DNA from: Candidatus Obscuribacterales bacterium
Lineage (GTDB): Bacteria; Cyanobacteriota; Vampirovibrionia; Obscuribacterales; Obscuribacteraceae
DNA: 64,000 nucleotides
Direction: 5' to 3'
NCBI GenBank assembly: GCA_965228855.1
Contig: CBDDIJ010000002.1
Location: 192,001 to 256,000, forward strand
Shown: in pieces, positions 1,536-62,985 of the stretch
How positions within the stretch are numbered: position 1 is the first letter of the stretch
Layout of the letters: the number at the start of each line of letters is the position of its first letter
Position numbers and translations under genes: made by a program
The notes under the pieces: generated by a model
Told to the model about the DNA's origin: nothing
The model's input: only the letters and a program-made list of their open reading frames with translations
Database searches by the model: none

Positions 1536-1650
1536 CTACTAAATGCGATAGTCTGCACAACCGAGACAGCACAAGCATCGGCGGGAAAATGCCCCCTACT
1601 AAATGCGATAGTCTTCGTGATCGAGATACTGCAAGCATCGGCGCAAAATG
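1536..1650 (+). repeat. two imperfect 60-bp direct repeats beginning CTACTAAATGCGATAGTCT
   Basis: Copies start at 1536 and 1596; both also contain CAAGCATCGGCG. Confidence 0.85.
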
Positions 1651-1670
1651 AACCCTATTTTGACCCACCA

Positions 1671-1724
1671 TTGTCTACGGCTCGTTGCCGCTTTTCGGAA
1701 AATCCGGCATCGAGGGATAGACAA
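1671..1724. repeat. 54-bp dispersed palindromic element, copy 1
   Basis: tt-GTCTA-cggctcg-TTGCC-N16-GGCAT-cgaggga-TAGAC-aa. Confidence 0.85.
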
Positions 1725-2053
1725 ACGGCTGTTTTGGGACCCTCTCGGAAGTTGGAGAAATCTCGAAATCCTCTATAGAAGAGCAGTTTCGGTGAAAGAT
1801 AGATACTGTCTTTTATAGTAGGCAAGATTTAAAAAAAATCCGAGCACGCGGCATACCGAAATTCCCGTTTGTTCAACAGGAAATTGGTATACCGCGTGCC
1901 GGACAGACTGACTCAAATGAATTATGTATGAGGCAGAAGCCAACCAGAATTCGAAGGCGGAATTCTGGTCGGCAGTTCCTGAGGTTTTCTCAGCGGTCAG
2001 TGGTCAAACTATTGCCTTCGTTTGAACCTTAACCGTCGCAGGCGCCGAGGCGC

Positions 2054-2296
2054 TTACTTCGTGGCCGGAGCCGCGGTGTCTTCCTCGCTCTCGCTGACGG
2101 ACAGGCCGACGGTGGCGGCGAGGCTCGTCTTGCGGGTCTTCGTGCCTTCCTTCACCGTCGTGGCGAGGGTGGAGGTCACGGTGACTTCGCGGTTGGAGGC
2201 GTCGCCGAGTTCGACCAGAGCCGCGTCATCGGCGGTCTTGCGGGCATCGGCGAGGCGGGCATCACGGGTGGCGTTCTTGGTGTTGGCGTTGGACAT
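2054..2296 (-). CDS. small hypothetical protein (Ala/Thr-rich)
   Basis: 80-aa ORF with AGGAG RBS and high-GC3 codon bias. Confidence 0.65.
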   Translation of the reverse strand: MSNANTKNATRDARLADARKTADDAALVELGDASNREVTVTSTLATTVKEGTKTRKTSLAATVGLSVSESEEDTAAPATK

Positions 2297-5041: not shown

Positions 5042-5188
5042 CTTCCCGCCAGTCGGTCCCTCCCCGGGACCCTCTGGTCTCCCGAATTTGCCTACTATAT
5101 GTTTACGTATCTCCGTAAGCCCGAGAATCGTTACGGTGTCGGTGTTCAGAGTCCTTCAAAACTTAAAAGAACACGAAAATTCCCAGAC

Positions 5189-5206
5189 TTGGCTACGTGG
5201 CTATGA
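5189..5206. repeat. left part of 54-bp element copy 2, split by the IS110 (remainder 6472-6507)
   Basis: Joining 5189-5206 to 6472-6507 restores tt-GGCTA-cgtggct-ATGAC-gcaatttcgaaattcc-GTCAT-cgaggga-TAGCC-aa. Confidence 0.85.
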
Positions 5207-5222
5207 GATAGTGTGTTCGCTG

Positions 5223-6188
5223 TCAACAATGAACGCTTAGATGATTGGGATTAAATGGTGTCTTTGTCCTGTAGATCGCCATCATGATGCGAAGTAGCTT
5301 GCGCATGGCGGCGCACAAGATGACTTTCCTTGGTTTGCACTTCTCTGCCAACTTTGTCGCGAATTTTTGAATGGCAGGGTTTGATCGAACTGCGCTCAGA
5401 GACGCCATGTAGAAAACTTTCCGGAGGCGCTTGCAGCCTTTCTTAGACATCTTCGGACGCCCTCGAACAGAAGTTCCAGACTCGCGCAATTCCGGAGTCA
5501 AGCCGCAGTAGCTCTCGACTTCTCTCAACGACTCGAAGGAATCCAAGCCGGAAATTTCCGTGAGAAACGTGAGTGCCGAGATCAAACCGACTCCAGGGAT
5601 GGTTTGCAGTAAGGCGAGATCGTTCTGAAATTGCGGTTCGGACTTGATCAAGAGGTCTCGAGCCTGTTCCAGCAGCAAAATCTCATTGTTGATGAATTCG
5701 ATTTGCCGCTGAAGCGAGATACTCACAGGTTCGTCGAGCCGACCGGACTCGGTACGATTCACGGTTCTGGTTCGGTCGGTTTTGAGCGCATCAATGTGAC
5801 GCTCAATGTTGCGAATCTTCCGGACCACGTCCGGGAGGGGCGTCCAGGTCTTCGGTTGAATCAGTTTGCAAAACTGTGCGATTACCTCGGCATCAATTGC
5901 GTCCGTCTTTGAACGCTTCAACAGGCTTTTGCCAAAGTTTTTGATCTGAACAGGATTGACGACGCTGACGGCAAAACCTTTGTCGCAGAAGTATTCTGCG
6001 AGTGGCTCCCAGAGCTTTCCAGTGGCCTCCATGCAAATTTGTACTTCGCTTTCGGTGTGCTGATTCAGCCACTTCTCAATTCGCCGAAATCCGCTGTCAG
6101 AGTTGTCAGCGTGCAACTTCCGCCCTCGTTCCGAGAGCAGATAGCAATCCACAGTCTCTTTAGAGATGTCTATCCCAAGTGATATCAC
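5223..6188 (-). CDS. IS110 family transposase / bridge recombinase
   Basis: RuvC-like DEDD residues (GIDISK, CMEATG, KTDAIDA), TIPGVG, and RESGTS with the catalytic Ser; GGAGG RBS. Confidence 0.95.
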   Translation of the reverse strand: MISLGIDISKETVDCYLLSERGRKLHADNSDSGFRRIEKWLNQHTESEVQICMEATGKLWEPLAEYFCDKGFAVSVVNPVQIKNFGKSLLKRSKTDAIDAEVIAQFCKLIQPKTWTPLPDVVRKIRNIERHIDALKTDRTRTVNRTESGRLDEPVSISLQRQIEFINNEILLLEQARDLLIKSEPQFQNDLALLQTIPGVGLISALTFLTEISGLDSFESLREVESYCGLTPELRESGTSVRGRPKMSKKGCKRLRKVFYMASLSAVRSNPAIQKFATKLAEKCKPRKVILCAAMRKLLRIMMAIYRTKTPFNPNHLSVHC

Positions 6189-6224
6189 GATGCGCCTCCA
6201 TTTAGACTTGCCAACCTACACAGG

Positions 6225-6440
6225 ACGCGGATAGAATCTTGTCAGGGCGAGCCTTGTACGCATGCTAAATCGTTCTAGGATTTGCATCTGATAGTGTTCA
6301 GCCTCAGAGGACAAGACAGAAACGGAAGTCCAAACCTCATAGCCTGACTTCGCGGTCATACGCATTTTCCTGGTTTCTTCCGTTTCTCTATCCTCGCGTC
6401 CTCGGATAGCCTTGCCGACAGCAGGACCTGGTGTCAATTG
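6225..6440 (-). ncRNA. predicted bridge RNA in the IS110 left end (ends approximate)
   Basis: Minus-strand order: GAAAATGCGT (6369-6360, left target), GGCTATGAG (6344-6336, right target), ACACTATC (6297-6290, left donor), CGTACAAG (6260-6253, right donor). Confidence 0.8.
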
Positions 6441-6617
6441 ATTGGGTCTGCTGTCAATCTCTAACGTACAACGCAATTTCGAAATTCCGTCATCGAGGGA
6501 TAGCCAAGAACCCACCTCTCGGATCGAATCCGTCTATCAGGTTCCGGCTTCGCGAAATTCCATAATGGCGAAGACTCTGACCAAGTTCAATTGCTACGCA
6601 ACATCCAACCCGCGATC

Positions 6618-9979: not shown

Positions 9980-10107
9980 ACACCAGAGCTTTTCCCCCGA
10001 GCACAGAAACGCATGCAGGAGTTTCGCCAACGCGAGACTCCTTCGTGTTTCTGTTCAAATTATTTGACTGAGTTTCCAAATTCGAGAAATCGGGTTTGAG
10101 AATATTT

Positions 10108-10782
10108 ATGGCAAAGGTTCTGGTGGTAGACGACGATAAACTTCTGGCGAATATGATCGCCGACTATCTGCGCGCGCAGCAGTACACGATTGAGTGCGCG
10201 TACAACGGCGCAGATGCCGAAGAATTGCTCTGCAACTATGTTTACGACGCGATTGTGATCGATTGGGGACTCCCTGAAAAGACCGGAATCGATGTCGTAA
10301 AAAAATTTCGGTTCGAAGGCGGAAACGCGCCCATCCTGATGTTGACAGGGCGGAACTCGATCGACGAGAAAGAGGTCGGTCTGGACAACGGCGCCGACGA
10401 TTATTTAACCAAACCCTTTCACATGAAGGAACTCTCCGCGCGCCTCCGTGCCCTCCTGCGAAGAGCCGCACCAACAAAGAAGTCTGAGCTGACAGCCAAA
10501 GGACTTGTCCTGGATCCGGTCGCGCACAAAGTCACCAGGGATGGTGTCGAGATCTCACTGCATCCCAAAGAATTCGCGCTTCTTGAACATCTCATGCGAA
10601 ATCCAAATCAAGTTTTCAGCGCGGAAAATTTACTCGATCGCGTATGGAAATCAGATTCGAGCGTCGGACCCGAAGGCGTGCGCGCGTCTGTAAAACGCTT
10701 GCGCAAAAAGATTGACGTCGAAGGCAAGGATTCAGTTATCGAAACCGTCTACGGCGTCGGCTACAAACTAGTCACCGACTGA
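10108..10782 (+). CDS. OmpR/PhoB family response regulator
   Basis: VLVVDDD, DWGLP, GADDYLTKPF, winged helix ending ETVYGVGY. Confidence 0.95.
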   Translation: MAKVLVVDDDKLLANMIADYLRAQQYTIECAYNGADAEELLCNYVYDAIVIDWGLPEKTGIDVVKKFRFEGGNAPILMLTGRNSIDEKEVGLDNGADDYLTKPFHMKELSARLRALLRRAAPTKKSELTAKGLVLDPVAHKVTRDGVEISLHPKEFALLEHLMRNPNQVFSAENLLDRVWKSDSSVGPEGVRASVKRLRKKIDVEGKDSVIETVYGVGYKLVTD

Positions 10783-10807: not shown

Positions 10808-10898
10808 GAAATTTCTACTAAATTCCAGTCCGAAATTTCTACTATATTCCAGCCCGAAATCCCTACTATAGTCCAGCCCGAAATCTCTACTATATTCC
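10808..10898 (+). repeat. four tandem 24-bp repeats GAAATYYCTACTAWADTCCAGYCC
   Basis: CTACTA at 10815, 10839, 10863, 10887. Confidence 0.9.
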
Positions 10899-10982
10899 CG
10901 CGTATTCGCATGCACCCGAGATCGAAACGCAGACGGCACTTTCGAGACTTCCAATCCAAACACAATAGTCCAAAACCAAGCT

Positions 10983-11036
10983 TTGGCTATGAGGGAACGA
11001 CGAAATTCGTGATTTCCGTCATTCCCTCATAGCCAA
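10983..11036. repeat. 54-bp dispersed element, copy 3
   Basis: tt-GGCTA-tgaggga-ACGAC-N16-GTCAT-tccctca-TAGCC-aa. Confidence 0.85.
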
Positions 11037-11181
11037 ACGTCCGCGAAAAATTAGCAACGCCGCCGCCTATCCTGTCATACTCAGGGTTCTCGCCATTTTA
11101 TAGATACGAAGTCATATAGTAGCAAAGTTTCGAAAGAAAGGTGGTACCAAGATTGATACCACCTTCCGGTGCGCTGTGAAC

Positions 11182-14840: not shown

Positions 14841-14971
14841 CACTCCGAGGCGGTGCAAACCGCCTCATCCCCAGCTCTGCCTACTATATTCCAAAGTATC
14901 TAGTGAACACCCAAAAACCAAGACCAGGTGTGACTTCTCAGCACTTTAGCGTAGAGCGACCCAGTCAAAAT

Positions 14972-15339
14972 ACACCCGCTTGTCTACGGTGCATAGACGG
15001 AATTCGCTAAATCCGTCGCTCTAGCGTAGACAGGCGGCAATTCGATCACTCAGAAAATCCCGGAAAACGCCACCAAATCAACAAACAGAGTCCTGTCTTT
15101 TATAGTAGACAAATCTGTTCTACTATAAACCGAAGTATCTCACAAAACACCAAGAATCAGTACCGACGGCGTTTTAGAACCGCCTGCCGACTTAACTAAC
15201 ACCCGCTTGTCTACGGTGCATAGACGGAATTTGCTAAATCCGTCGCTCTGCCGTAGACAGGCGGCAATTCGATCACTCAGAAAATCCCGAAAAACGCCAC
15301 CAAATCAACAAACAGAGTCCTGTCTTTTATAGTAGACAA
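14972..15339 (+). repeat. 141-bp direct duplication (14972-15112, 15199-15339) carrying 54-bp element copies 4 (14980-15033) and 5 (15207-15260)
   Basis: Near-identical copies, each ending TTTTATAGTAGACAA. Confidence 0.95.
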
Positions 15340-20397: not shown

Positions 20398-20635
20398 GAG
20401 GAACGGCGACATGCACGACGAAGTGCACAAGGCTGGTGATAGCAATCACTTGCCTGTCGGGAGCGAGATGCGATTCGCTGCCCGGCTGAGAAGACGCGAA
20501 GAAACCGGCTAACCATGCCGCTCTCTTCCGCCTTCTCATTCAAAGAACCTCTACTATATGCCATACTACGACTGACGTCTCGGTACCCTTGTGGTTTGGG
20601 CTTCGCCAGACACATCGGCTCTTTCTAGACCCTGC

Positions 20636-20689
20636 GTGTCTATCTGACGATGCCGGATTTCTGAAAATTCGTCATCCTCAGATAGCCAA
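20636..20689. repeat. 54-bp dispersed element, copy 6
   Basis: GTCTA-tctgacg-ATGCC-N16-GTCAT-cctcaga-TAGCC. Confidence 0.85.
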
Positions 20690-20841: not shown

Positions 20842-20895
20842 CCGTCAATGAGGGAGCGACGGAATTTGCTGAATCAGTCGCTCTGAGATTGACAG
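20842..20895. repeat. 54-bp dispersed element, copy 7 (half copy follows at 20915-20945)
   Basis: GTCAA-tgaggga-GCGAC-N16-GTCGC-tctgaga-TTGAC. Confidence 0.8.
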
Positions 20896-21747: not shown

Positions 21748-21801
21748 TTGTCTATCCTGGAATGACGCATTTCGCCGAATTCGTCTATGCACGATAGACA
21801 A
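21748..21801. repeat. 54-bp dispersed element, copy 8
   Basis: tt-GTCTA-tcctgga-ATGAC-N16-GTCTA-tgcacga-TAGAC-aa. Confidence 0.85.
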
Positions 21802-21845: not shown

Positions 21846-22013
21846 CGCCGATCAGGGACCCTAGGCACTACGATACTGTCTAGTAGCGATGGGCAGACCC
21901 TCGCCAGACGCCGATCAGGGAGCCTAGACACTACGATACTGTCTAGTAGTGATTGGCAGACCCTCGCCAGATGCCGATCAGAGAGACTTAGCATCACGAC
22001 ACTGCAAGTAGCC
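21846..22013 (+). repeat. about 2.6 tandem copies of a 63-bp unit containing TCTAGTAG
   Basis: Units start at 21846, 21909, 21972 (YGCCGATCAG...). Confidence 0.85.
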
Positions 22014-26528: not shown

Positions 26529-26743
26529 CCAAGCGGCTCGAAGTGGCGCGAGTCACTTCGAGCTGTGAGGAGTACTGAGGCGAAGCGGTTGAGTTAGCTC
26601 AACCGGAGCCGGGCGACAGGTCTACCAAGACCTGCCGCCTTGGCTTTTTTAAAACTTGCTACTAGCACATACAGTATCTTCTCCTTCCATAGAACCAGTC
26701 CCCGGGCGGCATTCCGTCGGTCGAGACGGACAGCTGGTGATCA

Positions 26744-26797
26744 GCGTCTACGAGGCGTTGACGCATTTTCAAAAAGTCGTCTATCAGTGATAGACAG
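26744..26797. repeat. 54-bp dispersed element, copy 9
   Basis: GTCTA-cgaggcg-TTGAC-N16-GTCTA-tcagtga-TAGAC. Confidence 0.8.
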
Positions 26798-26874: not shown

Positions 26875-27030
26875 GCGTTGCAAATCAGATTGCAGGTTTC
26901 AAGCCAACAGCTGCAAACCAATTTGCAGTCACTCAAATTTTGACGCGAAACCCGCCGTTCCTGGTCTCCTGACCGGGGCGTTGCAAATCAGATTGCTAAA
27001 TCCACACCAAAAGCTGCAAACCAATTTGCG
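26875..27030. repeat. two copies of a paired 16-bp palindrome TGCAAAY-N2-RWTTGCA
   Basis: Palindromes at 26879, 26912, 26982, 27015; 33-bp spacing within each pair. Confidence 0.75.
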
Positions 27031-27061
27031 AGCAAGATTGAGAGAGCGCGACGGACGATGC

Positions 27062-27115
27062 TTGTCTACGAGAGAATGACGGAATTCGCCAAATCCGTCG
27101 CTCTCTCGTAGACAC
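27062..27115. repeat. 54-bp dispersed element, copy 10
   Basis: tt-GTCTA-cgagaga-ATGAC-N16-GTCGC-tctctcg-TAGAC. Confidence 0.85.
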
Positions 27116-27125: not shown

Positions 27126-27285
27126 CGGCAAGCACAAGCGACCCAAAATCCGCTCAAGGCAAAGCATTACGGACACCATATATACGCTCTCATATAGTAG
27201 TAATTCTTGTCGGCAAGTACAAGCGGCCCAAAATCCTTTCAAGGCAAGGCATTACGGACAACACTTATACGCTCTCATATAGTAG
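27126..27285 (+). repeat. two ~75-bp direct repeats (period ~85 bp), each ending CTCTCATATAGTAG
   Basis: 27126-27200 and 27210-27285. Confidence 0.85.
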
Positions 27286-37414: not shown

Positions 37415-37552
37415 GAGCGCGCTTTTTCCGGACAGAATCGCTGCAGGCGGTTTCGGTTTAAACCGCTCATACGCGACTGCAGATACCGCGCCATTCGCGT
37501 GGAACCTGCAGAGGACCTGTCTCTTAACCAGATAAAGATAAGGAGAAATTCC

Positions 37553-40414
37553 ATGACCCAACGTACCAAACGAAGTAAGTTCGGCTTGGTGCGCATCGCT
37601 CTGGGCAGCCACGCGGTCGAAGTCACCAACTGTGACAAGAACGCGGACCACATCATCAGCATGATGCAGCGCGCCGCCGGCGTGAACGCCAACTTCCTGG
37701 TTCTCAACGAACTGGGCGTGACGGCGTACACCTGTGCCAACCACTTCCGCTCGGAAGTGCTGCGCGAAGGCGCCCTCAAGGCGATCGACAAAGTTCGACT
37801 TGCTTCCAAGAAAGTGTTCAAGGGCGTGACGCTGATCGGCGCGCCCATCGAACTCGACGGCGAGCTCTACAACTGCGCCGTCGTGATTCAGAACGGTCGC
37901 ATCCTCGGCGTGGTGCCGAAGACGTACCTGCCCAACACGGGCGAATTCCACGAGAAGCTCTGGTTCAGCCGCGGTGATGTTCTGCGTCGACGCACGGTGA
38001 AACTGTGCGGTCTCGACGTTCCCATCGGCGTCGACCTGCTGTTCGAAGCAGACGACTTCCCGGGCCTCGTGTTCGGCGTCGAAGTCTGCGAGGACGGCTG
38101 GGCGGTCATCCCGCCGCACCGGCTCCAGGCACTCGGCGGCGCGACCGTGCTCTTCAACCTGTCGGCGAGCAACGAACTCGTCGCCAAGGACGAGTATCGG
38201 CGCAGCATGATCCAGGCGCACTCGGCTCAGGCTCAGGCGATCTACGCTTACGCCTCTGCCGGCGAAGGCGAGTCGACCACCGACATCGTCTATGGCGGTC
38301 AGCTGCTGCTCGGCGAACTGGGCGGCATCCAGACCGAAGCCGAGCCGCTCGCCGACAACGACAGCCAGCCCTTCCGCTACGCCGACGTTGACGTTCAGCA
38401 CGTCACGCACGAGCGCATGCGCGACTCGACCTTCGAAGATTGCCGGCGCGCCTTCGCGTCGATGATCGATTTCCGGCGCGTGAAGTTCTCGCTCAACGCG
38501 GGCGACTTGCCGGAGAAACTGGCGCGCAACGTCGACGCCTATCCCTTCGTCCCGCAAGACCCGGCCACGCTCAACAAGCGCTGCCGCCAGGTGATCAAGA
38601 TCCAGGTGCGTGCGCTCCGCACGCGCCTGCTGTACCTGGCGAAACTGCGCGGCGGTCTCGAGAAGATGGTCGCAGACCTGGTCGCGAGCGGCAAGCCGCT
38701 GTTTGTGGTTGGTATCAGCGGCGGTGTCGACTCGACCGAGTGCTTGCTCGTCGCGCTGAAAACGCTCGATGAGCTCGGCATCCCCAGAAGTCTGCTTCAC
38801 TGCTTCACCATGCCCGGCTTCGGCACCACCAGCCGAACCTACAACAACGCCATCAAGCTCATGCAGCTCGCCGGCGTCACGTTGAAGGAAGTCGACATCA
38901 AGGCGCGCTGCCTGCTCGCCTGGCAGACGGAACACAAGACGCCGTTCGGGATCAACCTGGACGGGCTTGCGATGGACGCGTTCATTGACAAGCTCAAGGA
39001 ACTGCCGGCCGGTTCCAACGACCTCGACTTCGAGAACGAGCAGGCGCGCCAGCGCACGCACATCCTCATGAACAACGGCTTCGTGCTCGGCACGGGCACG
39101 CTCACCGAGCTCGCCTCGGGGTGGTGCACGTACAACGCGGACCACATGAGCATGTACTCGGTCAACCCGGGTGTGGCGAAGACGCTGATCGCGTTCCTCA
39201 TCCGCTGGTACGCCGAGCACGAGACCACGGGCGAACTGCAAGCGGTTTTGAACGACATCGCCGCGACTGCCGAATCGCCCGAACTGCTGCCGGTCGGCAA
39301 GGACGGACAGCAGAACCAGAAGTCCAACGATTCGCTCGGACCGAAGGACTTGCGCGACTTCTTCCTGTACCACTGGGTGCGGTGGGGGACGCGTCCGAGC
39401 AAAATCCTGTACCTCGCCACCAACGCGAAGTTCAAGCAGGACTACGCACTGAGCGGCGTTCTCGCCACTCTGCGCCAGTTCATCTGGCGTTTCATCACGC
39501 AACGCTACAAGCACTCCTGCCAGCCCGATGGCGTGAAGCTCGGCTCCGTGAGCCTGAATCCGCGTTACGACTGCCACTATCCTTCGGATACGGCGCCGGA
39601 CGCCTACAAGGCGGAGCTCGAGGAGTATGTCGGCCAGAAGCCGGCTGAAATCAACTGGCAGGAACCGCAACCCAAAGGACCGCAAATGAAAGCAAAACCG
39701 AAGGTGCTCCGGGCACTTCTCCGCGTCGACCTGAAGGACGACTTCATGCCGTGGGGTTCGCTGCCGGTCAAGGGCGGCGATGAGATCGTCAGCGTCGCCA
39801 ATGCGCTCTCGCGCAGCGGACAATACGACCTCGTCGTCGACATCGAAGACGATCACCCGAAGAACCACAAGTCGTTCGCCTCGCAGCACAAGGGCAAGAA
39901 GCCGTTCACCGACTTCGTCACCCTGTACGGCGTCAAGCAGCAGCTGTGGACCGACCACTGCGTCAACGGCACGGACGGCGCCAAGTTCCACAAGGACCTG
40001 GACCGCTCGATGGTGTCGAAGACGATCCAGAAGGGTCAGGACGCGCGCGTCGACAGCTACTCCGGCTTCTACGACAACGGTCGCACGGCGGCGCCGCGCT
40101 TCCGCAAGAAGTACAACTTCCTCGGCCGCTCGACCGGGCTCGCCGAGTATCTGCGCGCCGAAGCGGAAGCCCGCGGCTGCGACGAGATCCAGATCGACGT
40201 CATCGGTCTGGCGCTCCGCTACTGCGTCTCCTTCACCGCCAAGGACGGTCGCGGCGAGACCTACAAGGGCAAGCAGTTCGGTGTTCGCGTGGTCGAAGAC
40301 GGCGTCCGCGCCATCATCTTCAACGACGGCGAATACGAGCAGGAGCTCGAGGACCTGCGCGCGCTCGGCATCGAGGTGATCCACAGCAGCCAGGTGCTGC
40401 CGAAGGTCGCCTGA
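37553..40414 (+). CDS. nadE: glutamine-dependent NAD synthetase fused to nicotinamidase (NadE-PncA), copy 1
   Basis: Nitrilase E-K-C (NELG, PKTYLPN, VCED), GISGGVDST, C-terminal isochorismatase domain (DDFMP, DDHP, WTDHC, KGQD, DSYSGF, YCV). Confidence 0.88.
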   Translation: MTQRTKRSKFGLVRIALGSHAVEVTNCDKNADHIISMMQRAAGVNANFLVLNELGVTAYTCANHFRSEVLREGALKAIDKVRLASKKVFKGVTLIGAPIELDGELYNCAVVIQNGRILGVVPKTYLPNTGEFHEKLWFSRGDVLRRRTVKLCGLDVPIGVDLLFEADDFPGLVFGVEVCEDGWAVIPPHRLQALGGATVLFNLSASNELVAKDEYRRSMIQAHSAQAQAIYAYASAGEGESTTDIVYGGQLLLGELGGIQTEAEPLADNDSQPFRYADVDVQHVTHERMRDSTFEDCRRAFASMIDFRRVKFSLNAGDLPEKLARNVDAYPFVPQDPATLNKRCRQVIKIQVRALRTRLLYLAKLRGGLEKMVADLVASGKPLFVVGISGGVDSTECLLVALKTLDELGIPRSLLHCFTMPGFGTTSRTYNNAIKLMQLAGVTLKEVDIKARCLLAWQTEHKTPFGINLDGLAMDAFIDKLKELPAGSNDLDFENEQARQRTHILMNNGFVLGTGTLTELASGWCTYNADHMSMYSVNPGVAKTLIAFLIRWYAEHETTGELQAVLNDIAATAESPELLPVGKDGQQNQKSNDSLGPKDLRDFFLYHWVRWGTRPSKILYLATNAKFKQDYALSGVLATLRQFIWRFITQRYKHSCQPDGVKLGSVSLNPRYDCHYPSDTAPDAYKAELEEYVGQKPAEINWQEPQPKGPQMKAKPKVLRALLRVDLKDDFMPWGSLPVKGGDEIVSVANALSRSGQYDLVVDIEDDHPKNHKSFASQHKGKKPFTDFVTLYGVKQQLWTDHCVNGTDGAKFHKDLDRSMVSKTIQKGQDARVDSYSGFYDNGRTAAPRFRKKYNFLGRSTGLAEYLRAEAEARGCDEIQIDVIGLALRYCVSFTAKDGRGETYKGKQFGVRVVEDGVRAIIFNDGEYEQELEDLRALGIEVIHSSQVLPKVA

Positions 40415-41321: not shown

Positions 41322-41702
41322 ATGACTCACGCAGCACAATCCACCTTTCCTCGTCGCGGCGAAATCCGGTCTTTCCAGGATGCGTCCGAGGTTCGCTTCG
41401 GCGTCGTCATCTCCGACGATGCGCGCAACGAAAAGGCGAACGACGTCCTGCTCGTTCCGCTCAAGTCGACCGCGCAGTCGCCTCAGAGCGCGTCGCTCCC
41501 GACTCCCGGTCAGCCGCTCATCCCAAGCGCTCTTTCCGGTCTGTCCAGTGACTGCCGCGCGACCTGCGCCGACATCACTCGCGTCGAGAAGAGCGACCTC
41601 CTCGATGGTCCGGTCGGCACTCTGCCCGAGGTCCACCTGATGCAGATCGTGCGCGCCATCCGGGCAGCAATCGGCGACGCCCTCGTGCACCCCGTGCACT
41701 GA
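41322..41702 (+). CDS. PemK/MazF-like endoribonuclease fold protein
   Basis: PRRGEI, RFGVVISDDARN, VLLVPL, GL..D....DITRVEKSDL...VGTL. Confidence 0.75.
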   Translation: MTHAAQSTFPRRGEIRSFQDASEVRFGVVISDDARNEKANDVLLVPLKSTAQSPQSASLPTPGQPLIPSALSGLSSDCRATCADITRVEKSDLLDGPVGTLPEVHLMQIVRAIRAAIGDALVHPVH

Positions 41703-41892
41703 GAAATCGCGGACGCTCCCGTACGCCCCGTGCACTGAGAAATTGCGGACGCGCTCTCGCGCCCCCCCGTGCACTGATAAATTGCGGACGCGCTCTCGCG
41801 CCCCCCGTGCACTGAGAAATCGCGGACGCTCTCGTACGCCCCGTGCACCGAGAAATTGCGGACGCTCTCGCGCCCCCCGGTGCATTGAGATC
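41690..41892 (+). repeat. about 5.5 tandem 36-39-bp repeats CCCCGTGCACTGAGAAATYGCGGACGC...
   Basis: The first unit overlaps the stop codon of the PemK-like gene; no unique spacers. Confidence 0.9.
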
Positions 41893-41959
41893 GCCGCGCG
41901 CTCAGGCTCGAGCCTGAGCGCAACTGATCGTTTCCACCAATAACAATAAGGAACCAATC

Positions 41960-42670: not shown

Positions 42671-42819
42671 CTGAACAGACCGTCTACTATCTGTTGTCAT
42701 ACAGTCGACGATAAAAAAAAATCGCGACTACGTCGCCCATCAAGCCCGCAATCTCAAGTGATGCCCCTCTAGACCGCAATCTCAATCTCGAGTAATGCAC
42801 CGTCAAGCCGCACCGTTTG

Positions 42820-43270
42820 AAAAAGTGGGAAAAACAAATCACTTTTCGCCCAAAACTGATCGATTTTTGCCACATTTCCTTTTCCGAATCGAAAATCGGT
42901 GGAGCCAGACCGAATCGGCGGAAGCAAACGGAATCCGCGGAGCCGACCGGAATCGGCGGAGCTGAAACTGAGTCCGCGGAGACTGCAATCTCAAAAAGTG
43001 GCAAAAACAGATCACTTTTCGCCCAAAACTGATCGATTTTTGCCACATTTCCTTTTCCGAATCGAAAATCGGTGGAGCCAGACCGAATCGGCGGAAGCAA
43101 ACGGAATCCGCGGAGCCGACCGGAATCGGCGGAGCTGAAACTGAGTCCGCGGAGACTGCAATCTCAAAAAGTGTGGCAAAAACAGATCACTTTTCGCCCA
43201 AAACTGATCGATTTTTGCCACATTTCCTTTTCCGAATCGAAAATCCGCGGAGCTAGACCGAATCGGCGGA
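42820..43270 (+). repeat. about 2.6 tandem copies of a ~173-bp unit
   Basis: ATCACTTTTCGCCCAAAACTGATCGATTTTTGCCACATTTCC... occurs three times. Confidence 0.95.
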
Positions 43271-43564: not shown

Positions 43565-43974
43565 AGTCACCTCACGTTTACTTAAAATCTGCTTGAAATC
43601 GGCTGCAGAAGAGGTTTTCCAAAAACACACAACGACCGTCACTACGAATCCGAATCACAAGGACGCTCGCCGAAACACCCACCAGACATAGTACACAACC
43701 GGTTTCACGCGAAACACGATCGTTGCTGATACTCGGGCGTATGCTTGAGTGTTTAGAGATTTGAGAAGAAAAAATGCAATCAATTACTGCAACAGGTTAA
43801 ACGAACGACTCTAATACCATCAATATCAAAAGCCTGGATAACAATTGTCAGTAGCCAATTCACGCCCTAATTTGGTTAGCACGGCTAACGCAACCCGCTC
43901 CAGAAGCCACTTGACATTCACTCCTGACAAGCTCGACGAAAGCTGCGAAACAAGACGGCTCCGCAGGTGCAAAG

Positions 43975-44157
43975 GGCCCAACGAAAGCTGCATCACCTAG
44001 AACGGCTCGGCAGCTGCAACGGCCCAACGAAAGCTGCATCACCTAGAACGGCTCGGCAGCTGCAACGGCCCAACGAAAGCTGCATCACCTAGAACGGCTC
44101 GGCAGCTGCAACGGCCCAACGAAAGCTGCATCACCTAGAACGGCTCGGCAGCTGCAG
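43975..44157 (+). repeat. four essentially identical tandem 46-bp repeats with degenerate flanking copies
   Basis: GGCCCAACGAAAGCTGCATCACCTAGAACGGCTCGGCAGCTGCAAC at 43975, 44021, 44067, 44113. Confidence 0.95.
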
Positions 44158-44357
44158 CAGCTACAGCGGCCTCATCTGCATCACAAAGAACGGTCCGGCA
44201 GGTGCTGCACAGGCTCCGGCAGGTGCGAATCGGAAAAACCGATTCCATAGCCCTCAAGAAAAACAGCGGAATGGGGAATAAACCCACTCCGCTGCTCGAC
44301 ACGTTCTCAAAATCCGAAAGGCGAAATCTCCTTCTTCCCGGGAGAAACTCGCAAATT

Positions 44358-52820: not shown

Positions 52821-53897
52821 ATGCCGGACAAAAAACCAATTTTGTTTTCCACCGCCAGCTACGAATACCTGAAGAAGGCGATGATGGCGGGCGACCGGTT
52901 CGTCGACGGCTTGATCGCGCGCGGACAATCGAAAGACGGGCCGGTTTACGAAGACAAACCTTTCCCGGACGGCGAACGCTATCACCGCATCATGACCGAG
53001 GTCGCGGACCATGAAGTCATACTTCTCGGTGGCACAATCGACGATCGAGAAACAATGGAACTTCTGGATCTGGGGCAGGCGATTGTTGAGAAAGGCGCGC
53101 TGAGTCTGCTTTTGCTTGTTCCCTACTTCGGATATTCAACGATGGAACGCCAGGTGCTGCCGGGCGAAGTTGTAAAAGCGAAGAATCGCGCCAGACTGAT
53201 CTCGGCGATACCGCCGGCAGCATTCAGAAATCGGATTTTGCTCCTCGATTTGCACTCGGAAGGAATTCCTCACTACTTCGAAAACAGCCTTGTCGCCTAC
53301 CATCTGTACGCTCGCGACCTGATCATCGACGCCATTGTCGACGTTGTAAAAGAATGGCAGTCATCGGCACTGGTAGCGTCCGCGGTGGCAGACGGCAAAG
53401 GTTCTAAACCCTATGAGCGAGGCGGACGGTCCGACGAGAACTGGCTGGACGACGCCCACTTCACCCTTGCATCCACGGACGCGGGTCGGGCTAAATGGGT
53501 AGAATCACTCGCTCAAGACATGTCTGCACGCGGCATCCCCGTACACCCTGCGTTTATCATCAAACGCCGCACCTCCGGGGCTGAAACAGAAGTCGCCGAC
53601 ATCTCCGCAGACGTCGACGGAAAGTTTGTAATCATTTACGACGACATGGTGCGCACCGGCGGAAGCGCAATCAAGGCAGCCAAAGCCTATTTGAATAAAG
53701 GTGCCAGGGCAATCGCGTTGGTTTGCACCCACGGCGTCTTGCCAAAGGATTCGAAACAGCGCTTGAAAGACTCAGGCTGTTTCTTCAAAATCGTAGTCAC
53801 CGACAGCCATCCCCGGGCGGTCGAACTGGAAGATGACTTCGTAAAAGTCGTGTCAATCGCCAGCCTGCTCGAAGAAAGCATCTTCAACCATCATTGA
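52821..53897 (+). CDS. prs: ribose-phosphate pyrophosphokinase-like protein, copy 2
   Basis: FPDGE, PYFGYSTMER, DLHSEG, DDMVRTGGS; clear paralog of 36293-37414. Confidence 0.85.
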   Translation: MPDKKPILFSTASYEYLKKAMMAGDRFVDGLIARGQSKDGPVYEDKPFPDGERYHRIMTEVADHEVILLGGTIDDRETMELLDLGQAIVEKGALSLLLLVPYFGYSTMERQVLPGEVVKAKNRARLISAIPPAAFRNRILLLDLHSEGIPHYFENSLVAYHLYARDLIIDAIVDVVKEWQSSALVASAVADGKGSKPYERGGRSDENWLDDAHFTLASTDAGRAKWVESLAQDMSARGIPVHPAFIIKRRTSGAETEVADISADVDGKFVIIYDDMVRTGGSAIKAAKAYLNKGARAIALVCTHGVLPKDSKQRLKDSGCFFKIVVTDSHPRAVELEDDFVKVVSIASLLEESIFNHH

Positions 53898-53954
53898 AGA
53901 GACATCAGAAAACTGATCGTATGATATGTTCATAACAAAATTAGAAGGCAACTT

Positions 53955-56864
53955 ATGAAATCGGTGTCGTTGAAAAACAAACTTAAAAATCACGGATTTG
54001 TTCGCGTTGCAACAGCGACTCCGAAGCTCAAGGTCGGCAATGTGACCTACAACTGTGCCGAAATTATCGAGCTCCTGAAGCAGGCGGAAAATGAGCGCGC
54101 CGCTGTGGTTTTCTTTCCCGAGCTATCATTGACCGGCTACACATGCGCAGACCTCTTCCACAACTTTGAGCTTTTGCAAGGTGCGCTTGATGGGTTGGAA
54201 ACCGTCCGAGCGGCCACCCTCAACGATTTCTCCGGTATCGCGTTTGTAGGCGTGCCGCTTCTCATAGACAACCTTGTATTCAACTGCGCTGTGGCGCTCA
54301 GCAATGGGAAAATTCTTGGTGCTGTTCCGAAAAGCTATCTGCCAAACGCAGGGGAGTTCTATGAGTGGCGCTGGTTCTCACCGGCAGAGTGCTCGGTAAA
54401 TGACTCGATTTTGCTGGGTAGTGAAACAGTTCCGTTCGGAACCGACATTTTGTTCTCCGCAGACAACTTTCCCGGGCTGGTGATCGGGCTTGACGTGTGC
54501 GAGGACGGTTGGGCAGTCGACCCTCCGTCGTTGAAGCATGCCATCATGGGCGCCACCATTATCGGAAATCTGTCAGCAAGTCCAGAGTGGGTGAGCAAGC
54601 AAGAATACAGAAGAACTCTGTTCACGATGCGCTCAGCGACACTGCTTTCGGCATACGCCTACACTTCGTCCGGCGTTCATGAATCCACTTCCGACCTGGT
54701 GTTCAGCGGACATCAGTTAATTTGCGAAAACGGCTCTCTTATCGCTCAGTGCAAACCCTTCTCCAGAGACTCAAAGTTGACTGTCGCCGACATCGACATC
54801 GAACGACTCCTGGCGGATCGAATGAGAATCAAAAACTTCGCCGACGCCAGACGACGAACGAAAGAACGACTCAAGTATCGCAAAGCTCCATTCAAAGCCA
54901 ATTTTGTGGAAGAGCCTTCAACCTTGATGCGCAAAGTCGATCCGCGTCCATTTGTGCCGAGAGATTCATTCGCGTTGAACGAACGTTGCGATGATATCTT
55001 CAACATCCAGGTAGCCGGGCTGGCGAAGCGGCTTGAGCAGCTCGGCAAAAATCCAAGCATCGTGCTCGGAATTTCCGGTGGTTTGGATTCGACTCTTGCA
55101 GTTCTCGTCGCATGCAGAACAATGGACCTGCTCGGACTGGACCGCACTAACATCCGCGGATTTACAATGCCGGGATTTGGTACGACGGAGCGCACAAAGA
55201 ACAATGCTCTGGCGCTCATGAAGGAGCTTGGAATCAAGGTCGAGCCAGTTGCCGACATCAGAGCCGCATGCCTGGAAGAGATGCGGCAGATGAAACATTC
55301 TCCGTTTGCGCAAATAAATATTGATGAGATTTACAGCCAAGCCGCAAAGAAAGTAGAGAAATCCAAAGAGTTCACGATCGACGCTATCCAAACGGCGGCA
55401 CAAGAACTCTTTTCCGATGCTTTGAGTAATCTTCCTGCAAACAGTCAGGACCTGGTTTTTGAAAACATTCAGGCCCGAATGCGCACGAAGATATTGATGG
55501 ACTCCGGATTCGTACTTGGCACCGGAGACCTCTCAGAGCTCGCCCTGGGCTGGTGTACGTACAACGCCGACCACATGAGCATGTATAACGTCAACTCCGG
55601 AGTCCCGAAAACTCTTGTACGTTTTCTCGTAAAGTGGGCCGCAGAGCACCTCTTCGAAGGAGAGACCAGACGCATTCTTATCGATATTTTCGATACTGAG
55701 ATTTCTCCGGAGCTCCTGCCTGCAGGCAAGGACGGCACCATTGCTCAAAAAACCGAAAGCTTGATCGGTCCATACGAACTTCACGATTTCTTTTTGTACA
55801 ACATGCTGCGCTTCGGTTTCAGTCCAGAAAAAATTCTATTTCTGGCGAAACATGCAAAATTTCAGGGAGAGTACGACGAGAGCGAAACTCGCGTATGGCT
55901 CAAAATTTTCATTCAGCGCTTCTTCCGAAATCAGTTCAAGCGCAACTGTTTACCCGACGGTCCCAAGGTCGGCTCTATCTGCCTTTCGCCGCGAGGTGAC
56001 TGGAGAATGCCGAGCGATGCCGATGAAACGCTCTGGTTACGTTGGGCTGAAAAAGATACTCTACCAATCGGTGCGAGTGAGACGAATACGCCGTTCAGCT
56101 CCCGTTCCACAACATCCAACTCGAATGGCAAAGGGTCGAAGAAACTCTTAAGAGTATTGCTACGCATTGATGAGCAGAATGACTTCATGCCCGGGGGGGC
56201 GCTCGCCGTCGCTGATGGCGACCAGATCGTAGACGTCTCCAACAGACTTGCCCTGAGCGGTTATTATGATCTAGTCGTGGATAGCATGGACGATCATCCT
56301 GTGGACCACGGATCATTTGCATCTCAGCATGACGGCAAGAAACCGCTGACAGACCGAGTTTCACTACACGGCATCGATCAGCAGCTCTGGCCGGACCATT
56401 GCGTCTCCGGAACACAAGGCGCTGAATTTCATCCGAAACTAGACCGCTCAATGGTCGCCATGACCGTCAAAAAGGGACAGGACAAGCGTGTCGACAGCTA
56501 CAGCGCATTCTATGACAACGGTCGCCACGCCAACGTAGGCAACAAGAAGCAAAACCAGTTCCTGGGACAATCCACTGGATTGGCTGATTATCTGCGACAG
56601 TGCGCCGAAGAGCGCAAAGCAACTGCAATCCAAATCGACATCGTCGGTCTGGCTCTTCCCTTCTGCGTGACATACAGCGCGAAGGATGCACGAGAGGAAA
56701 TGTATAAAGGCAGACCATTTGATGTGCGCGTAATTGCCGACGGCGTCAAGGCTATCGAACTGCAAGACGGCGATTTTGAGCGGTCGCTAGCGGACCTGAA
56801 AAAATCAGATATTGAAATTATCACAAGCAAAGACGTACTTGCCGAGCTCACAGCGAAACGCTGA
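53955..56864 (+). CDS. nadE: glutamine-dependent NAD synthetase fused to nicotinamidase (NadE-PncA), copy 2
   Basis: FPEL, PKSYLPN, VCED, GISGGLDST, ENIQAR, GTGDLSE, LSPRGDWRMPSD; PncA IDEQNDF, WPDHC, DSYSAF, FCV. Confidence 0.92.
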   Translation: MKSVSLKNKLKNHGFVRVATATPKLKVGNVTYNCAEIIELLKQAENERAAVVFFPELSLTGYTCADLFHNFELLQGALDGLETVRAATLNDFSGIAFVGVPLLIDNLVFNCAVALSNGKILGAVPKSYLPNAGEFYEWRWFSPAECSVNDSILLGSETVPFGTDILFSADNFPGLVIGLDVCEDGWAVDPPSLKHAIMGATIIGNLSASPEWVSKQEYRRTLFTMRSATLLSAYAYTSSGVHESTSDLVFSGHQLICENGSLIAQCKPFSRDSKLTVADIDIERLLADRMRIKNFADARRRTKERLKYRKAPFKANFVEEPSTLMRKVDPRPFVPRDSFALNERCDDIFNIQVAGLAKRLEQLGKNPSIVLGISGGLDSTLAVLVACRTMDLLGLDRTNIRGFTMPGFGTTERTKNNALALMKELGIKVEPVADIRAACLEEMRQMKHSPFAQINIDEIYSQAAKKVEKSKEFTIDAIQTAAQELFSDALSNLPANSQDLVFENIQARMRTKILMDSGFVLGTGDLSELALGWCTYNADHMSMYNVNSGVPKTLVRFLVKWAAEHLFEGETRRILIDIFDTEISPELLPAGKDGTIAQKTESLIGPYELHDFFLYNMLRFGFSPEKILFLAKHAKFQGEYDESETRVWLKIFIQRFFRNQFKRNCLPDGPKVGSICLSPRGDWRMPSDADETLWLRWAEKDTLPIGASETNTPFSSRSTTSNSNGKGSKKLLRVLLRIDEQNDFMPGGALAVADGDQIVDVSNRLALSGYYDLVVDSMDDHPVDHGSFASQHDGKKPLTDRVSLHGIDQQLWPDHCVSGTQGAEFHPKLDRSMVAMTVKKGQDKRVDSYSAFYDNGRHANVGNKKQNQFLGQSTGLADYLRQCAEERKATAIQIDIVGLALPFCVTYSAKDAREEMYKGRPFDVRVIADGVKAIELQDGDFERSLADLKKSDIEIITSKDVLAELTAKR

Positions 56865-57612: not shown

Positions 57613-57780
57613 ACAGTGCTCGGGCGGTGGCGCCCTGTTTTCGCAAAGTCGCCAGGCGAGCAGCACGCCTGGCGACTTTGCACCCAGCCCATTTGCTACT
57701 ATCTAATATCGTGCTCGTCAAGTCCCCAATGACTTGTCCGTAGAGGCTTTGCGAGACTTCCCTCTCCTAACGAATCCAAT

Positions 57781-57834
57781 TTGTCTATCGTACGATGCCG
57801 GAATTTCGAAATTCCGGCATTCCAGGATAGACAA
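57781..57834. repeat. 54-bp dispersed element, copy 13
   Basis: tt-GTCTA-tcgtacg-ATGCC-ggaatttcgaaattcc-GGCAT-tccagga-TAGAC-aa. Confidence 0.9.
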
Positions 57835-57977
57835 AATCGTCCTTTCAAAAACACGAATTTCCAGTATCCCTCTGGCAAAGCCTCTTTCGAAGCCACGTCG
57901 ATATTAGGTTCTATAGTAGCAAAATGGGGGAAAGACGGAGGCGAAAAGTCGCCTCCGTCCGTTTCAGTCGTCGCTAA

Positions 57978-62100: not shown

Positions 62101-62663
62101 AAGATGGCACCATTCTCTACGCGGAAGATTCAAAAAACCTGCGAATCACAACCGACATGCAGAATATCGCCGATCTCGCCAACTATTATTATTCGAGGCA
62201 CCAATCTCAATATCCGAAAAAACGCAAAGACTTCAGCGAAATGGGTCCTGACGTAAAGTGGGAAAACCCGCTCGGGCAGTCAATTAAACCAATCATCAAG
62301 GCGCATGAGTTTGAGAAATATGATGGTGATGTTGCGTTCTCCGAGAATCTAGACAAGTATCGCAAAGGTAAGAAAATCTTCGAACAGGACGGCAAAACAG
62401 GCGCACCGCCCGGGCTCATAGAATGCCTGAGCATCGTGCCTTTCGACGAATACCACACCGAAGACGGTGTTTCATTCATGGTGCGCGCGTACGATTCGAA
62501 CGGCAAATTCCTGACGTCCAGCATTCCGGGCGAAGTGTTCGTTATCTGCCAACGCAACGGCGTCAAACATACCGTGGTCAAAGCAGAAGATATCAAATCC
62601 CCCGTCAAGGACAGCAGCAAAACCACAGCCTATTTCAAGTTGATGTCCGGAAGTAAGAACTAG
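59133..62663 (+). CDS. Pro-rich, TPR-like, single-pass membrane protein (start uncertain: CTG 59133 or TTG 59229)
   Basis: Long Pro-rich N-terminus, TPR-like helices (LHKLADCYY...YEEALAHYE), one TM segment. Confidence 0.8.
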   Translation: MSSDNTDKKKTGAASNEGKDASGLSFSIPPDDLIFGEGEEKADVSIKPITPKEDRSGAGWSYKRDASEPPVSGSSSGPAPVPVPPPALFGGPTPPQDAAQSPRRSATNLPGAGAPPPPPPPPSFNWAAPTATPSPSPDKTATSGLGGLNLPDLENDLPALAGEPPAFLATPPSFGLSTPATTDGAPPGFGEPPSFGATTSDSSSDPAQARTPLSKRPPARGRIHSDIHINEHHLEQPAAPSSDAGLSPFAPQTSPGGPSPFAPSAPAQLTPGPAQSPFAPPASSEPAAVSPVTAPPAATPAPPQPPPPAAPALSSPPEPALPPPPAPPVPPPIPPSVSSQPLPPPIPPPPEPKAPVKQEQRPRTEQKPPAQPQQRPQLSSQQRPTTSPRSQIDDKALPKPKAFGQIMPTSKKGPDQPLRPSDPGRHSPPQPGPGKNIFTVIGENDTVSPPEPKRVPFPDDSIMPGSGMQAEPPNWQNSQSSGTYRSGITPESPSAPQTGFDNLPTDDWKLDDLDQRSEPTGTSSSPQSPFAPPEVAQSSPFAPETGSGEERRTVIPFPDESAVFMPPQGAAPLGTPGSATGFGEEQDSNFGYSQSGSDYAQPDFGDAQRDQSSPDSEFSEPGFEQEPAPTAAEQENTGNKGVPNSKQFREACLASSTADSAMANDNFKVAMPLYKKAHKQFKKADATDSQEFGNCLHKLADCYYHTEEYEEALAHYEEFIEWSKHRSTQPDVLTVVVNLKRARTFQKLDRVDDCDRAFHETVTMANRALPVSHPLFTVVYNSYISMLKFSGNAADKLTQVEEQFAERMMTSSRTVAIPEDLQEELSAWTDLEKADQDRLERNRQLKLSRHMFQNERSRPGQMVHSITGSGAFKTIVIVVVSLLLIGSISVMGFGAYMLLDQSGDKAAESKDLADPALGAYVGKVYKSADGLKTLTIKKDGTATFVFGNDSATFAAAAGAPKEGIAEDLRKMMFGKNNYIVEEVQKGFRDKDGTILYAEDSKNLRITTDMQNIADLANYYYSRHQSQYPKKRKDFSEMGPDVKWENPLGQSIKPIIKAHEFEKYDGDVAFSENLDKYRKGKKIFEQDGKTGAPPGLIECLSIVPFDEYHTEDGVSFMVRAYDSNGKFLTSSIPGEVFVICQRNGVKHTVVKAEDIKSPVKDSSKTTAYFKLMSGSKN

Positions 62664-62782
62664 AACCGGGAGCACTTTTGCCTACGCCACAATGCCGACC
62701 TGACCATTCCTACTATACTCGACAGGACTTACAACTAGACAGGACGAGGGTTTCGGGCTTTTCGCTCGCACTGGGAGCACTT

Positions 62783-62836
62783 TTGTCTACGCCACAATGC
62801 CGGATTTCGGCAAAAGCGTCATTGCCACGTAGCCAA
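62783..62836. repeat. 54-bp dispersed element, copy 14
   Basis: tt-GTCTA-cgccaca-ATGCC-N16-GTCAT-tgccacg-TAGCC-aa; half copy at ~62678. Confidence 0.85.
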
Positions 62837-62985
62837 ACCGAAAGTTTTCTGAGATTCACGCGACGAGAATCGGCGCAAACCCTGGAGGCATCGACCTCTA
62901 CAAAACACCTCAGATACGGACTTTTATAGTAGACAATGTGGGGAGAGGCGACGGGGAAAACGCTTGTTTCCCCGTCGCGTAGAAC

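Follow-up and report, generated by a model that had tools for sequence, protein, structure and literature searches.

A 54-bp double-dyad repeat, an older terminator-adjacent arm motif and a candidate PLD-HTH partner in an Obscuribacterales chromosome

The DNA considered here, referred to as the window, is a stretch of 64,000 nucleotides from Candidatus Obscuribacterales bacterium, corresponding to positions 192001–256000 of contig C2 in the 8.2-Mb source genome (G000), which is 95% complete and lies on six contigs named with C-numbers. Its intergenic regions carry a 54-bp repeat, the core (repeat family A), which is often accompanied at a distance by a shorter dyad, the arm, and genes elsewhere on C2 encode the predicted nuclease PLD-HTH, which appears to be the partner of the core. 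An earlier sequence-only reading had described core and flanking octamers as one composite intergenic site of about 220 bp. Genes were called with a simple in-house predictor, cores were located by running a symmetric 54-bp profile over G000 with the reversed genome as the null, and arm spacing was measured from the core centre to the outer edge of the arm. Feature coordinates are window positions, whilst those prefixed C2, C3 or C5 refer to whole contigs of G000; the other G-numbers (G001, G002, G005, G006, G007, G012, G041, G060 and so on) denote genomes of relatives, the family set comprising 83.

At the left end of the window a plus-strand arm (1596–1614) with a tandem duplicate (1536–1554), a core (1671–1724) and a minus-strand arm (1803–1821) form a two-armed unit with spacings of 102 and 124 bp, and sister species have a lone dyad by the same terminator hairpin at the place orthologous to the right arm. 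The next core is split by an IS110-family element on the minus strand (5206–6470, transposase 5223–6188), which sits between core positions 17 and 18, leaving the first 17 bp of the core at 5189–5205 and the other 37 bp at 6471–6507; the octamer formerly listed at 5092 belongs to the plus-strand arm of this core (5092–5110, core centre 5216, distance 124 bp). All four copies of this element type lie at that core position and all three copies of a second type lie at another, which places seven of seven in cores, and the IS110 loci comprise, besides that of the window, C2:774.7, 858.6 and 1120.8 kb. The two types, with proteins 52% alike and similar ends, are a natural pair for comparing bridge-RNA targeting loops. 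Four tandem plus-strand arms with a 24-bp period (10815–10905, the innermost 10887–10905) precede the core at 10983–11036, which has arms at 123 and 113 bp; its right arm (11104–11122, minus strand) stands by the terminator of an M28 peptidase gene and is kept in G005 and G006 without a core. A response-regulator gene at 10108–10782, inverted relative to G002, G005 and G006, has one end near these stacked arms. Two complete arm-core-arm units, recognised as such before, then follow, namely 14881–15108 (arm 14881–14899, core 14980–15033, arm 15090–15108) and 15120–15335 (arm 15120–15138, core 15207–15260, arm 15317–15335), which are 97% identical over core and right side and different on the left. 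Contigs of other strains differ at window elements by +93, −77 and −260 nt, the first and last of these at the unit 14881–15108.

Single-armed units make up much of what follows. On the plus strand these are arm 20551–20569 with core 20636–20689, which has a linker relative at C2:1018833, and arm 26659–26677, just after a terminator, with core 26744–26797, both at 112 bp; on the minus strand they are core 21748–21801 with arm 21868–21886 (112 bp) and a duplicated arm (21931–21949) that is missing in another strain, core 27062–27115 with arm 27182–27200 (112 bp) and duplicated arm 27267–27285, and core 33119–33172 with right arm 33238–33256 (111 bp). Cores of a TGTCAAT subfamily lie at 20842–20895, arm-less, of a 73-bp tandem type and with a partial second copy, and at 30961–31014. 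Other repeat families share these places: two family C repeats (26875–27033, plus strand) are nested between two family A cores, and three 57-bp copies of family B (starting at 42821, 42994 and 43169) follow a plus-strand arm at 42684–42702, the whole spanning 42684–43225. Towards the right end are the unit 57696–57919 (arm 57696–57714, core 57781–57834, arm 57901–57919), which is indeed symmetric at 112 and 112 bp, and the unit 62710–62932 (arm 62710–62728, core 62783–62836, arm 62914–62932) at 100 and 123 bp. All 18 octamer positions of the sequence-only reading hold the octamer or its complement with 0–2 mismatches.

Across G000 there are 210 cores, 178 on C2, 24 on C3 and 8 on C5, whilst in the reversed genome not one is detected, even with the threshold at 0 bits. 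The profile of the 210 resolves the core into two 5-N7-5 dyads, 33 bp apart, on either side of an A/T-rich centre, each half carrying the dyad G(T/G)C(T/A)(A)-N7-..G(A/C)C. GTAG at the core ends is directed outward, and the REP-type combination of such a tag with a compensated hairpin is not found. Symmetry of the core halves, as hairpin covariation would maintain it, is near or below chance at positions 18–23 and modestly above chance elsewhere, and a hairpin or RNA function of the core was rejected because of this scant covariation; the repeat is therefore probably read as double-stranded DNA. The window gives no match to Rfam at gathering score. All 210 cores are intergenic, with 91 between convergent, 103 between co-directional and 16 between divergent genes, against a background of 77, 174 and 107 for long intergenic regions of the first 1.15 Mb of C2, the stretch in which 174 of the cores fall. 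A strict core pattern matches 116 sites in G000, 97 in G007, one in G006 and none in 28 other relatives. A scan of GTDB contigs with the core pattern returned 47 stretches, 43 in one Obscuribacterales metagenome-assembled genome (MAG) and one in another, the remaining three being on a single contig from a MAG assigned to Acidobacteria, 87–92% similar to G000 and probably misbinned; no plasmid relatives were found beyond two chance 30-mers. Judged by this distribution, the core is a lineage-specific double operator that is younger than the arm.

The motif that flanks the core is not the octamer itself. The actual arm is a dyad of 17–19 bp, YTACTA-N7-T(A/C)GTA, and its association with the core extends through the genome, where 207 of 292 exact octamers lie 60–180 bp from a core centre and face the same way, as the window had led one to expect. 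Arms are present on 244 of 420 core sides, with 62 cores having both, 120 one and 28 none. The notion of a single composite site has to be given up, as core and arm are two things that differ in age and, since only 62 of 210 cores are two-armed, the copied unit is arm-linker-core and not the symmetric 220-bp form. Arm distances peak at 101, 112/114, 122/124 and 133–137 bp, the second and third classes spanning 112–114 and 122–126 bp, so that the three distance classes first described agree with the recount and are joined by a fourth. None of the 236 arms at 95–140 bp falls on the 12 gap positions between classes, which were picked after inspection of the histogram and for which a uniform distribution would give 61.6. 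The best spacing period is 11.25–11.5 bp (R = 0.81; R = 0.80 for the 148 arms of non-tandem cores alone), which bears out genome-wide the steps of about one helical turn. The linkers, taken earlier to be unrelated, are not wholly so: AA/TT recurs in them every 10.5 bp and, among 27,781 pairs of distant linkers, 21 show clear homology. Quantised spacing, phased A/T tracts and the lack of hairpin covariation together support the earlier suggestion that protein sites at core and arms are kept in helical phase across bent DNA.

One function proposed for this geometry is that the arms are outward promoters, with TATAGT as the −10 box and a core-bound activator, which would send antisense RNA into the terminators. 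TATAGT is strongly kept in G000 arms, and it is generally plausible for an upstream activator to act from 100–135 bp on bent DNA. The placement of the elements is unlike that of promoters, in that convergent cores far outnumber divergent ones relative to background and 222 of 311 arms face gene 3' ends, whilst back-to-back and stacked arms serve no gene. Moreover, there is no −35 element (signal 2.83 versus 2.83 in shuffled sequence), and sister species keep TACTA and not the TATAGT hexamer, the sister genera likewise maintaining TACTA-N7-T(A/C)GTA without TATA. A promoter function is hardly credible on these grounds.

The arm has a wider distribution than the core. A hairpin of −15 kcal/mol or lower lies just outside the outermost arms (n = 210) in 67% of cases versus 33% of shuffled ones, and mostly ends 6–17 nt before the arm. 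The gene order of the window is kept in G001, G002, G005 and G006 with no core there, and in core-less sister species the dyad is retained beside orthologous terminators in the five intergenic regions inspected, often as a lone dyad between two hairpins, with homology stopping at the dyad. Over the 83 family genomes the N7 dyad pattern has 1190 matches versus 240 for N8 spacing (73 versus 5 in G041, 46 versus 1 in G091, several genomes being without excess). G041, G060 and G012, contiguous genomes from three other genera, also have arm dyads after terminators, and the matches gather around dnaA: 72 of 73 at 2.41–3.06 Mb in G041 (dnaA at 2.83), 15 of 15 at 1.66–3.03 Mb in G060 (dnaA at 2.58) and 17 of 17 at 0.15–1.18 Mb in G012 (dnaA at 0.58), where orientation is opposite on the two sides. 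The sole dnaA of G000 (C2:792762) lies in the first 1.15 Mb of C2, as do dnaN, rnpA, yidC, topA and the GC-skew switch, and arm polarity about this dnaA is weak (45:26 on the left, 13:14 on the right). These comparisons show the arm to be a family-wide, terminator-adjacent dyad that is clustered around dnaA and predates the core, and both the dyad and its origin-domain distribution are well supported at the level of sequence.

Such a distribution recalls sites that mark chromosomal domains. The pairs matS/MatP and maoS/MaoP are reportedly macrodomain sites with their binders, and RacA sites and parS are other repeated domain sites. What the arm shares with matS and maoS is its distribution alone, as a short palindrome whose copies are spread over a single large domain, here that of oriC; it differs in being tied to terminators and in serving as the spot at which repeats, accessory genes and PLD-HTH genes land. 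Searches for a chromosomal ParB gave nothing in G001, G041, G060 or G012, and the only ParB match of G000 is on C4. No parS cluster was found either, just one parS-like site with two mismatches to the consensus. Of the candidates for a host binder of the arm, the Xer-like pair described below and the PLD-HTH family both failed on co-occurrence and none was identified: the former was rejected since it is not found in G041, G060, G091 and G096, the latter since arms are enriched in G060, G031, G089, G091 and G096, which have no full-length gene. G001 has its own repeat of about 110 bp beside arms, in either orientation and with no match in G000 (loci L017, L019, L020, L050, L051, L052 and L054), for which no partner gene was identified.

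The composite might on this basis be a host-selected origin-domain site, at which a host protein on the arms and a core protein, perhaps co-opted, loop or wrap the DNA, with copying being incidental. The confinement of the arm to 0.65–1.4 Mb around dnaA in three other genera, its polarity in G012, its presence in those five genomes that have no full-length PLD-HTH, and the failure to find chromosomal ParB in four relatives all fit, as do the concentration of cores in the origin domain of G000 and the persistence of orthologous cores between G000 and G007. This suits the arm and not the core: five congeners keep arms and have no core, other repeats occupy the same slots, slot contents turn over between strains, and IS110 insertion into cores is tolerated in all seven instances. 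The earlier idea of a chromosome-organising site is supported as regards the domain character of the arm and not for the core, and as an account of the composite it is quite improbable.

A partner for the core is suggested by one of the breaks in the alignment of G000 with G007, where an open reading frame (ORF) of G007 sits between arrays of six and four TGTCAAT-type cores and G000 has a single core. The ORF encodes a PLD domain with the motif HxK(x4)D(x6)GSxN, a CxxC motif and a C-terminal XRE helix-turn-helix (HTH). The HKD motif residues H, K, D, S and N are invariant in 27 sequences, an AlphaFold model (pLDDT 91) matches PLD3, NucT, Zucchini and Nuc, the HTH is most similar to C-proteins and HipB, and the PLD domain is closest to Mokosh defence proteins. 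No family model was found for the PLD-CxxC-HTH fusion, which databases name only as 'hypothetical' or 'HTH protein'. There are five homologues in G000, all on C2 at 67–1043 kb, and the closest to the G007 ORF (54%), a predicted nuclease of 257 residues with intact HKD motif encoded at C2:103074–103847, 88 kb from the window, lies between cores, one about 170 bp upstream and another downstream. Four of the five genes adjoin a repeat of their own, family A with 210 copies, B with 17 (two weak), C with 46 and D with 10, the nulls being 0. Families B, C and D are likewise double dyads, of 54–57 bp (50–57 bp for PLD-HTH repeats overall), with B and C occurring in the window; B lies upstream of the paralogue at C2:67368 and C flanks that at C2:1042618, whilst the fifth homologue has lost its HKD motif.

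The gene and the repeat also go together between genomes. The core-flanked PLD-HTH clade, with support of 100/100, was found among the 83 genomes only in the core-rich G000 and G007, and the core-gene-core layout recurs in two metagenome contigs, the metagenome scan having returned only two close loci, both from the source lineage. The TGTCAAT-type gene is at different sites in G007 and in metagenome contig L178 and at neither in G000, which has gene-less cores at the L178 site. The proteins P0004 and P0006 are 75% and 56% relatives, and PLD-HTH substitutions are mostly synonymous (25:5 and 57:14 codons). Full-length PLD-HTH is present in about 26 of the 83 family genomes, in 1–10 copies each, and in none of 200 other genomes of the phylum, where 13 candidates were scored per genome; at least 345 sequence clusters are found at E ≤ 1e-30, and double-dyad palindromes adjoin several other members. 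In genus g45 a different double dyad (32 bp apart, searched with a 15-bp spacer in a pattern that G092 did not seed) has 4–5 copies in three of three genomes with one PLD-HTH clade and none in the two without it, several copies lying 67–170 bp from arm-like dyads. One further pattern matches, over the 83 genomes, only in its two seed genomes (4 and 3 copies; 0 of 81 others), and therefore shows dispersal without being an independent test. The pairing of repeat and gene is, as a sequence association, well supported.

The extent of the copied units shows in comparisons between copies. Identity between tandem copies (66 pairs) is about 0.5 over positions −10 to −1 from the arm and at background beyond −12, so that copies start within about 10 nt outside the arm, whilst the far end is variable and often just past the core. 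The homologous distant pairs inspected, eight in full and part of a ninth, span the arm through to the whole core, and target-site duplications, examined for lengths of 2–9 bp at five offsets relative to the core, show no excess. Along 320 kb that hold 75 cores, the sequences of G000 and G007 run collinearly, without a single inverted block. Their alignment breaks in 26 of 36 core-bearing intergenic regions versus 16 of 123 others (13 of 62 long ones), with the DNA from terminator to core duplicated or replaced wholesale. A lone gene for a reverse transcriptase of 389 residues (C2:944579; L046:6459–7625) is directly followed by arm-core units, though many other genes adjoin cores as well.

A recombination site with arm sites had been put forward as well, and would be of the lambda attP or cer type, in which crossover would take place within the 7-bp spacers while accessory proteins wrap the linkers. 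Dyads of the form 5-N7-5 generally suit tyrosine recombinases, the lone dyad between terminators in sister species could be such a site, and two conserved Xer-like paralogues (L027 and L026) lie in the same domain at C2:369829–370710 and 923144–924055. In both, the catalytic Arg, Lys and His are missing, although the two are 85–93% conserved across the genus and have intact relatives in other genera; this degenerate pair does not co-occur with the motif, a comparison that did not extend to the remaining 15 integrase matches. Left and right arm spacers of the 62 two-arm units share 2.27 of 7 positions versus 2.19 ± 0.11, which leaves no common overlap for a crossover, and the absence of inversions and the inclusion of the whole arm in copied units are equally at odds with the proposal. 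A res or att site for a serine recombinase is opposed by the resolvase family PF00239, which has no match in G000 with a control positive in 12 of 14 genomes. Site-specific recombination is accordingly very unlikely. The Y1 HUH transposase family PF01797 also has no match in G000, with its control positive in 6 of 14.

REP repeats are reportedly targeted by IS110-family elements. RAYT genes lie between REPs of their own type, and the number of REPs tracks the gene (PMC2817692, PMC8266576, PMC3733652). The system described here resembles that account in several respects: cognate repeats lie on either side of an enzyme gene, paralogues have separate repeat families, abundance follows the gene, and the repeats are intergenic, downstream of genes, often convergent, arranged in tandem mosaic arrays and targets of IS110. 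Unlike in REP-RAYT, the partner is a PLD nuclease with an XRE-HTH and no Y1/HUH gene was found in G000, the repeat is a 50–57-bp double dyad without hairpin covariation, and copies dock at a separate terminator-adjacent dyad, phase-locked and in one chromosome domain. PLD-HTH repeats are not members of the REPtron, because they lack both a Y1 enzyme and a hairpin kept by selection; by analogy, the PLD-HTH system likely works as REP-RAYT does with unrelated chemistry. MITEs (miniature inverted-repeat transposable elements) and other non-autonomous derivatives of insertion sequences are short non-coding units that are also copied to new sites. Arm-core units differ from these in having no target-site duplication or conserved linker and in having one end fixed and the other variable.

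How the protein may bind is suggested by restriction-modification controllers. Two dimers of C.Csp231I bind two 5-N5-5 operators, 18 bp apart, on bent 54-bp DNA, with a spacer of which the length matters and the sequence does not (PMC4321490). The core shares with the operators of C.Csp231I and C.EcoO109I the XRE-HTH partner and two 5-bp inverted-repeat operators that have their centres 33 bp apart, occupy about 54 bp and are separated by an A/T-rich spacer; unlike the single operator at a C-R-M promoter, there are 210 dispersed copies, found on both sides of a lone gene, the inner spacer is 7 bp and the HTH is fused behind a nuclease. The PLD domain has the single HxK(x4)D(x6)GSxN motif and fold in common with Nuc, NucT, Zucchini, BfiI and Mokosh, none of which is described in the literature searched as an enzyme of repeat spreading or transposition. 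The chemistry known for such nucleases involves a covalent phosphohistidine and a 3' leaving group. BfiI forms a phosphohistidine and releases the 3' end (PMC2853115).

Taken together, it is fairly probable, by association and analogy, that the core-flanked PLD-HTH nuclease binds the core and copies it into the older terminator-adjacent, origin-proximal motif. Two HTH dimers would bind the two core dyads, as C.Csp231I does on its 54-bp operator of the same spacing, and the bent linker of 55–90 bp would bring the core-bound protein to the arm only when the two are in helical phase. The HKD site would then nick near the outer edge of the arm through a phosphohistidine intermediate, with chemistry like that of BfiI, freeing a 3'-OH, and displacement synthesis and strand transfer would give rise to tandem copies or to a unit inserted at another arm. 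The symmetric 220-bp form could arise where opposite units share one core, or where a gene is lost between two cores. Nicking, synthesis and rejoining of this kind would fix the end at the arm, leave the far end variable, duplicate no target and subject only the phase to selection, and linker length would be quantised whilst linker sequence drifts because only in-phase units would be copied.

The cores may instead be operators of a PLD-HTH regulator, or of a stress or defence nuclease, that are spread by host repair, through gene conversion or microhomology duplication where breaks or stalled forks occur close to bound protein, and not by PLD strand transfer. The kinship of the HTH to C-proteins and HipB and of the PLD domain to Mokosh would agree with this, as would the double-dyad geometry, which is that of a controller operator, the imprecise junctions with short microhomologies and the half-site exchange between orthologous cores. 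However, cores are also found on the downstream side of the gene, and non-divergent regions hold 194 of the 210, unlike in a regulon; moreover, ordinary repair explains neither the arm-fixed end nor the phase-locked spacing. This explanation is unlikely.

A number of observations weigh against copying by PLD-HTH, a role that is likely through association and analogy. The fixed end is fuzzy, with about 50% identity over −10 to −1 and no sharp cut site, and only 5 of 48 PLD-HTH gene flanks have a strong inward arm (control 1). Phased arms are absent from families B to D, and 19 of 23 cores of the TGTCAAT subfamily have no arm, so that phasing is special to one subfamily; families B, C and D are also less confined to the origin region (11 of 17, 24 of 46 and 5 of 10). 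G000 has TGTCAAT-type cores without their close cognate gene, and the single core of G006 occurs without a close PLD-HTH gene. The core-bearing genomes are about 95% identical, and family A is, given such close kinship, nearly one event. Other enzymes are to be considered too, as four reverse transcriptases exist and the nickase negatives cover Y1 and resolvase, the control for Y2 (IS91-type) being blank and other nickase families not having been searched.

No description of the PLD-HTH repeat system or of the arm motif was found in the literature searched, outside which most subscription papers and supplements lie, and the system is apparently undescribed. The transposases known so far rely on DDE, HUH, tyrosine, serine, DEDD, Cas1 or reverse-transcriptase chemistry. 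A mobiliser acting by PLD/phosphohistidine chemistry would, if real, add a transposase class with a compact protein and natural specificity variants, and would give selfish DNA in bacteria a novel means of spreading. The chances are about even that this is a new class of mobile DNA, in which a PLD/XRE-HTH transposase reads its own double-dyad repeat in double-stranded DNA and copies it, at times its gene as well, to a host motif by which an origin domain lacking ParB is marked, with helical phase as the replication rule and the motif as an undescribed origin-domain system. It would also bear, as an independent example, on how REP-like repeats spread, with the arm-fixed end and phase dependence as predictions at the sequence level. 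The arm dyad itself suggests that bacteria in which no chromosomal ParB was detected mark their origin region by some undescribed means, and were the nuclease not the copier, an undescribed repeat-protein pairing and an undescribed domain motif would remain.

Some further features of the genome were noted. The origin-bearing part of C2 (1–1150000) has a GC3 of 0.63–0.82 versus about 0.55 in the remainder of the chromosome, a coding density of 0.75–0.81 versus about 0.88 elsewhere, and few tRNAs; about 21 tRNA genes are clustered at C3:724518–727973, with a smaller cluster at C3:1529761–1530653. C2:1–60000, with 66% GC, and C4, which ranges from 29% to 66% GC and holds the sole ParB match, may be foreign or misassembled. 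A palindrome family near TC(C/G)TAAACCGATATCGGTTTA(C/G)GA, often in short arrays, occurs at C5:1.11–1.21 Mb and C3:0.8–1.6 Mb and is locally clustered; the AACCGATATCGGTT palindrome was rejected as a marker of a complementary domain, being a locally clustered repeat. Genomes of genus g34 have a recurrent 19-bp palindrome, TTACTACACGTGAGTAGTA, and variants with 8-bp spacing, in 1–2 copies per genome. Within the window, two more intergenic tandem repeats lie at 41642–41914 and 43926–44201 (36–39-bp and 46-bp units), and 36245–40414 and 52821–56864 hold paralogous pairs of genes for phosphoribosyl pyrophosphate (PRPP) synthetase and glutamine-dependent NAD synthetase, the NAD synthetase of the second pair bearing an isochorismatase-family domain.

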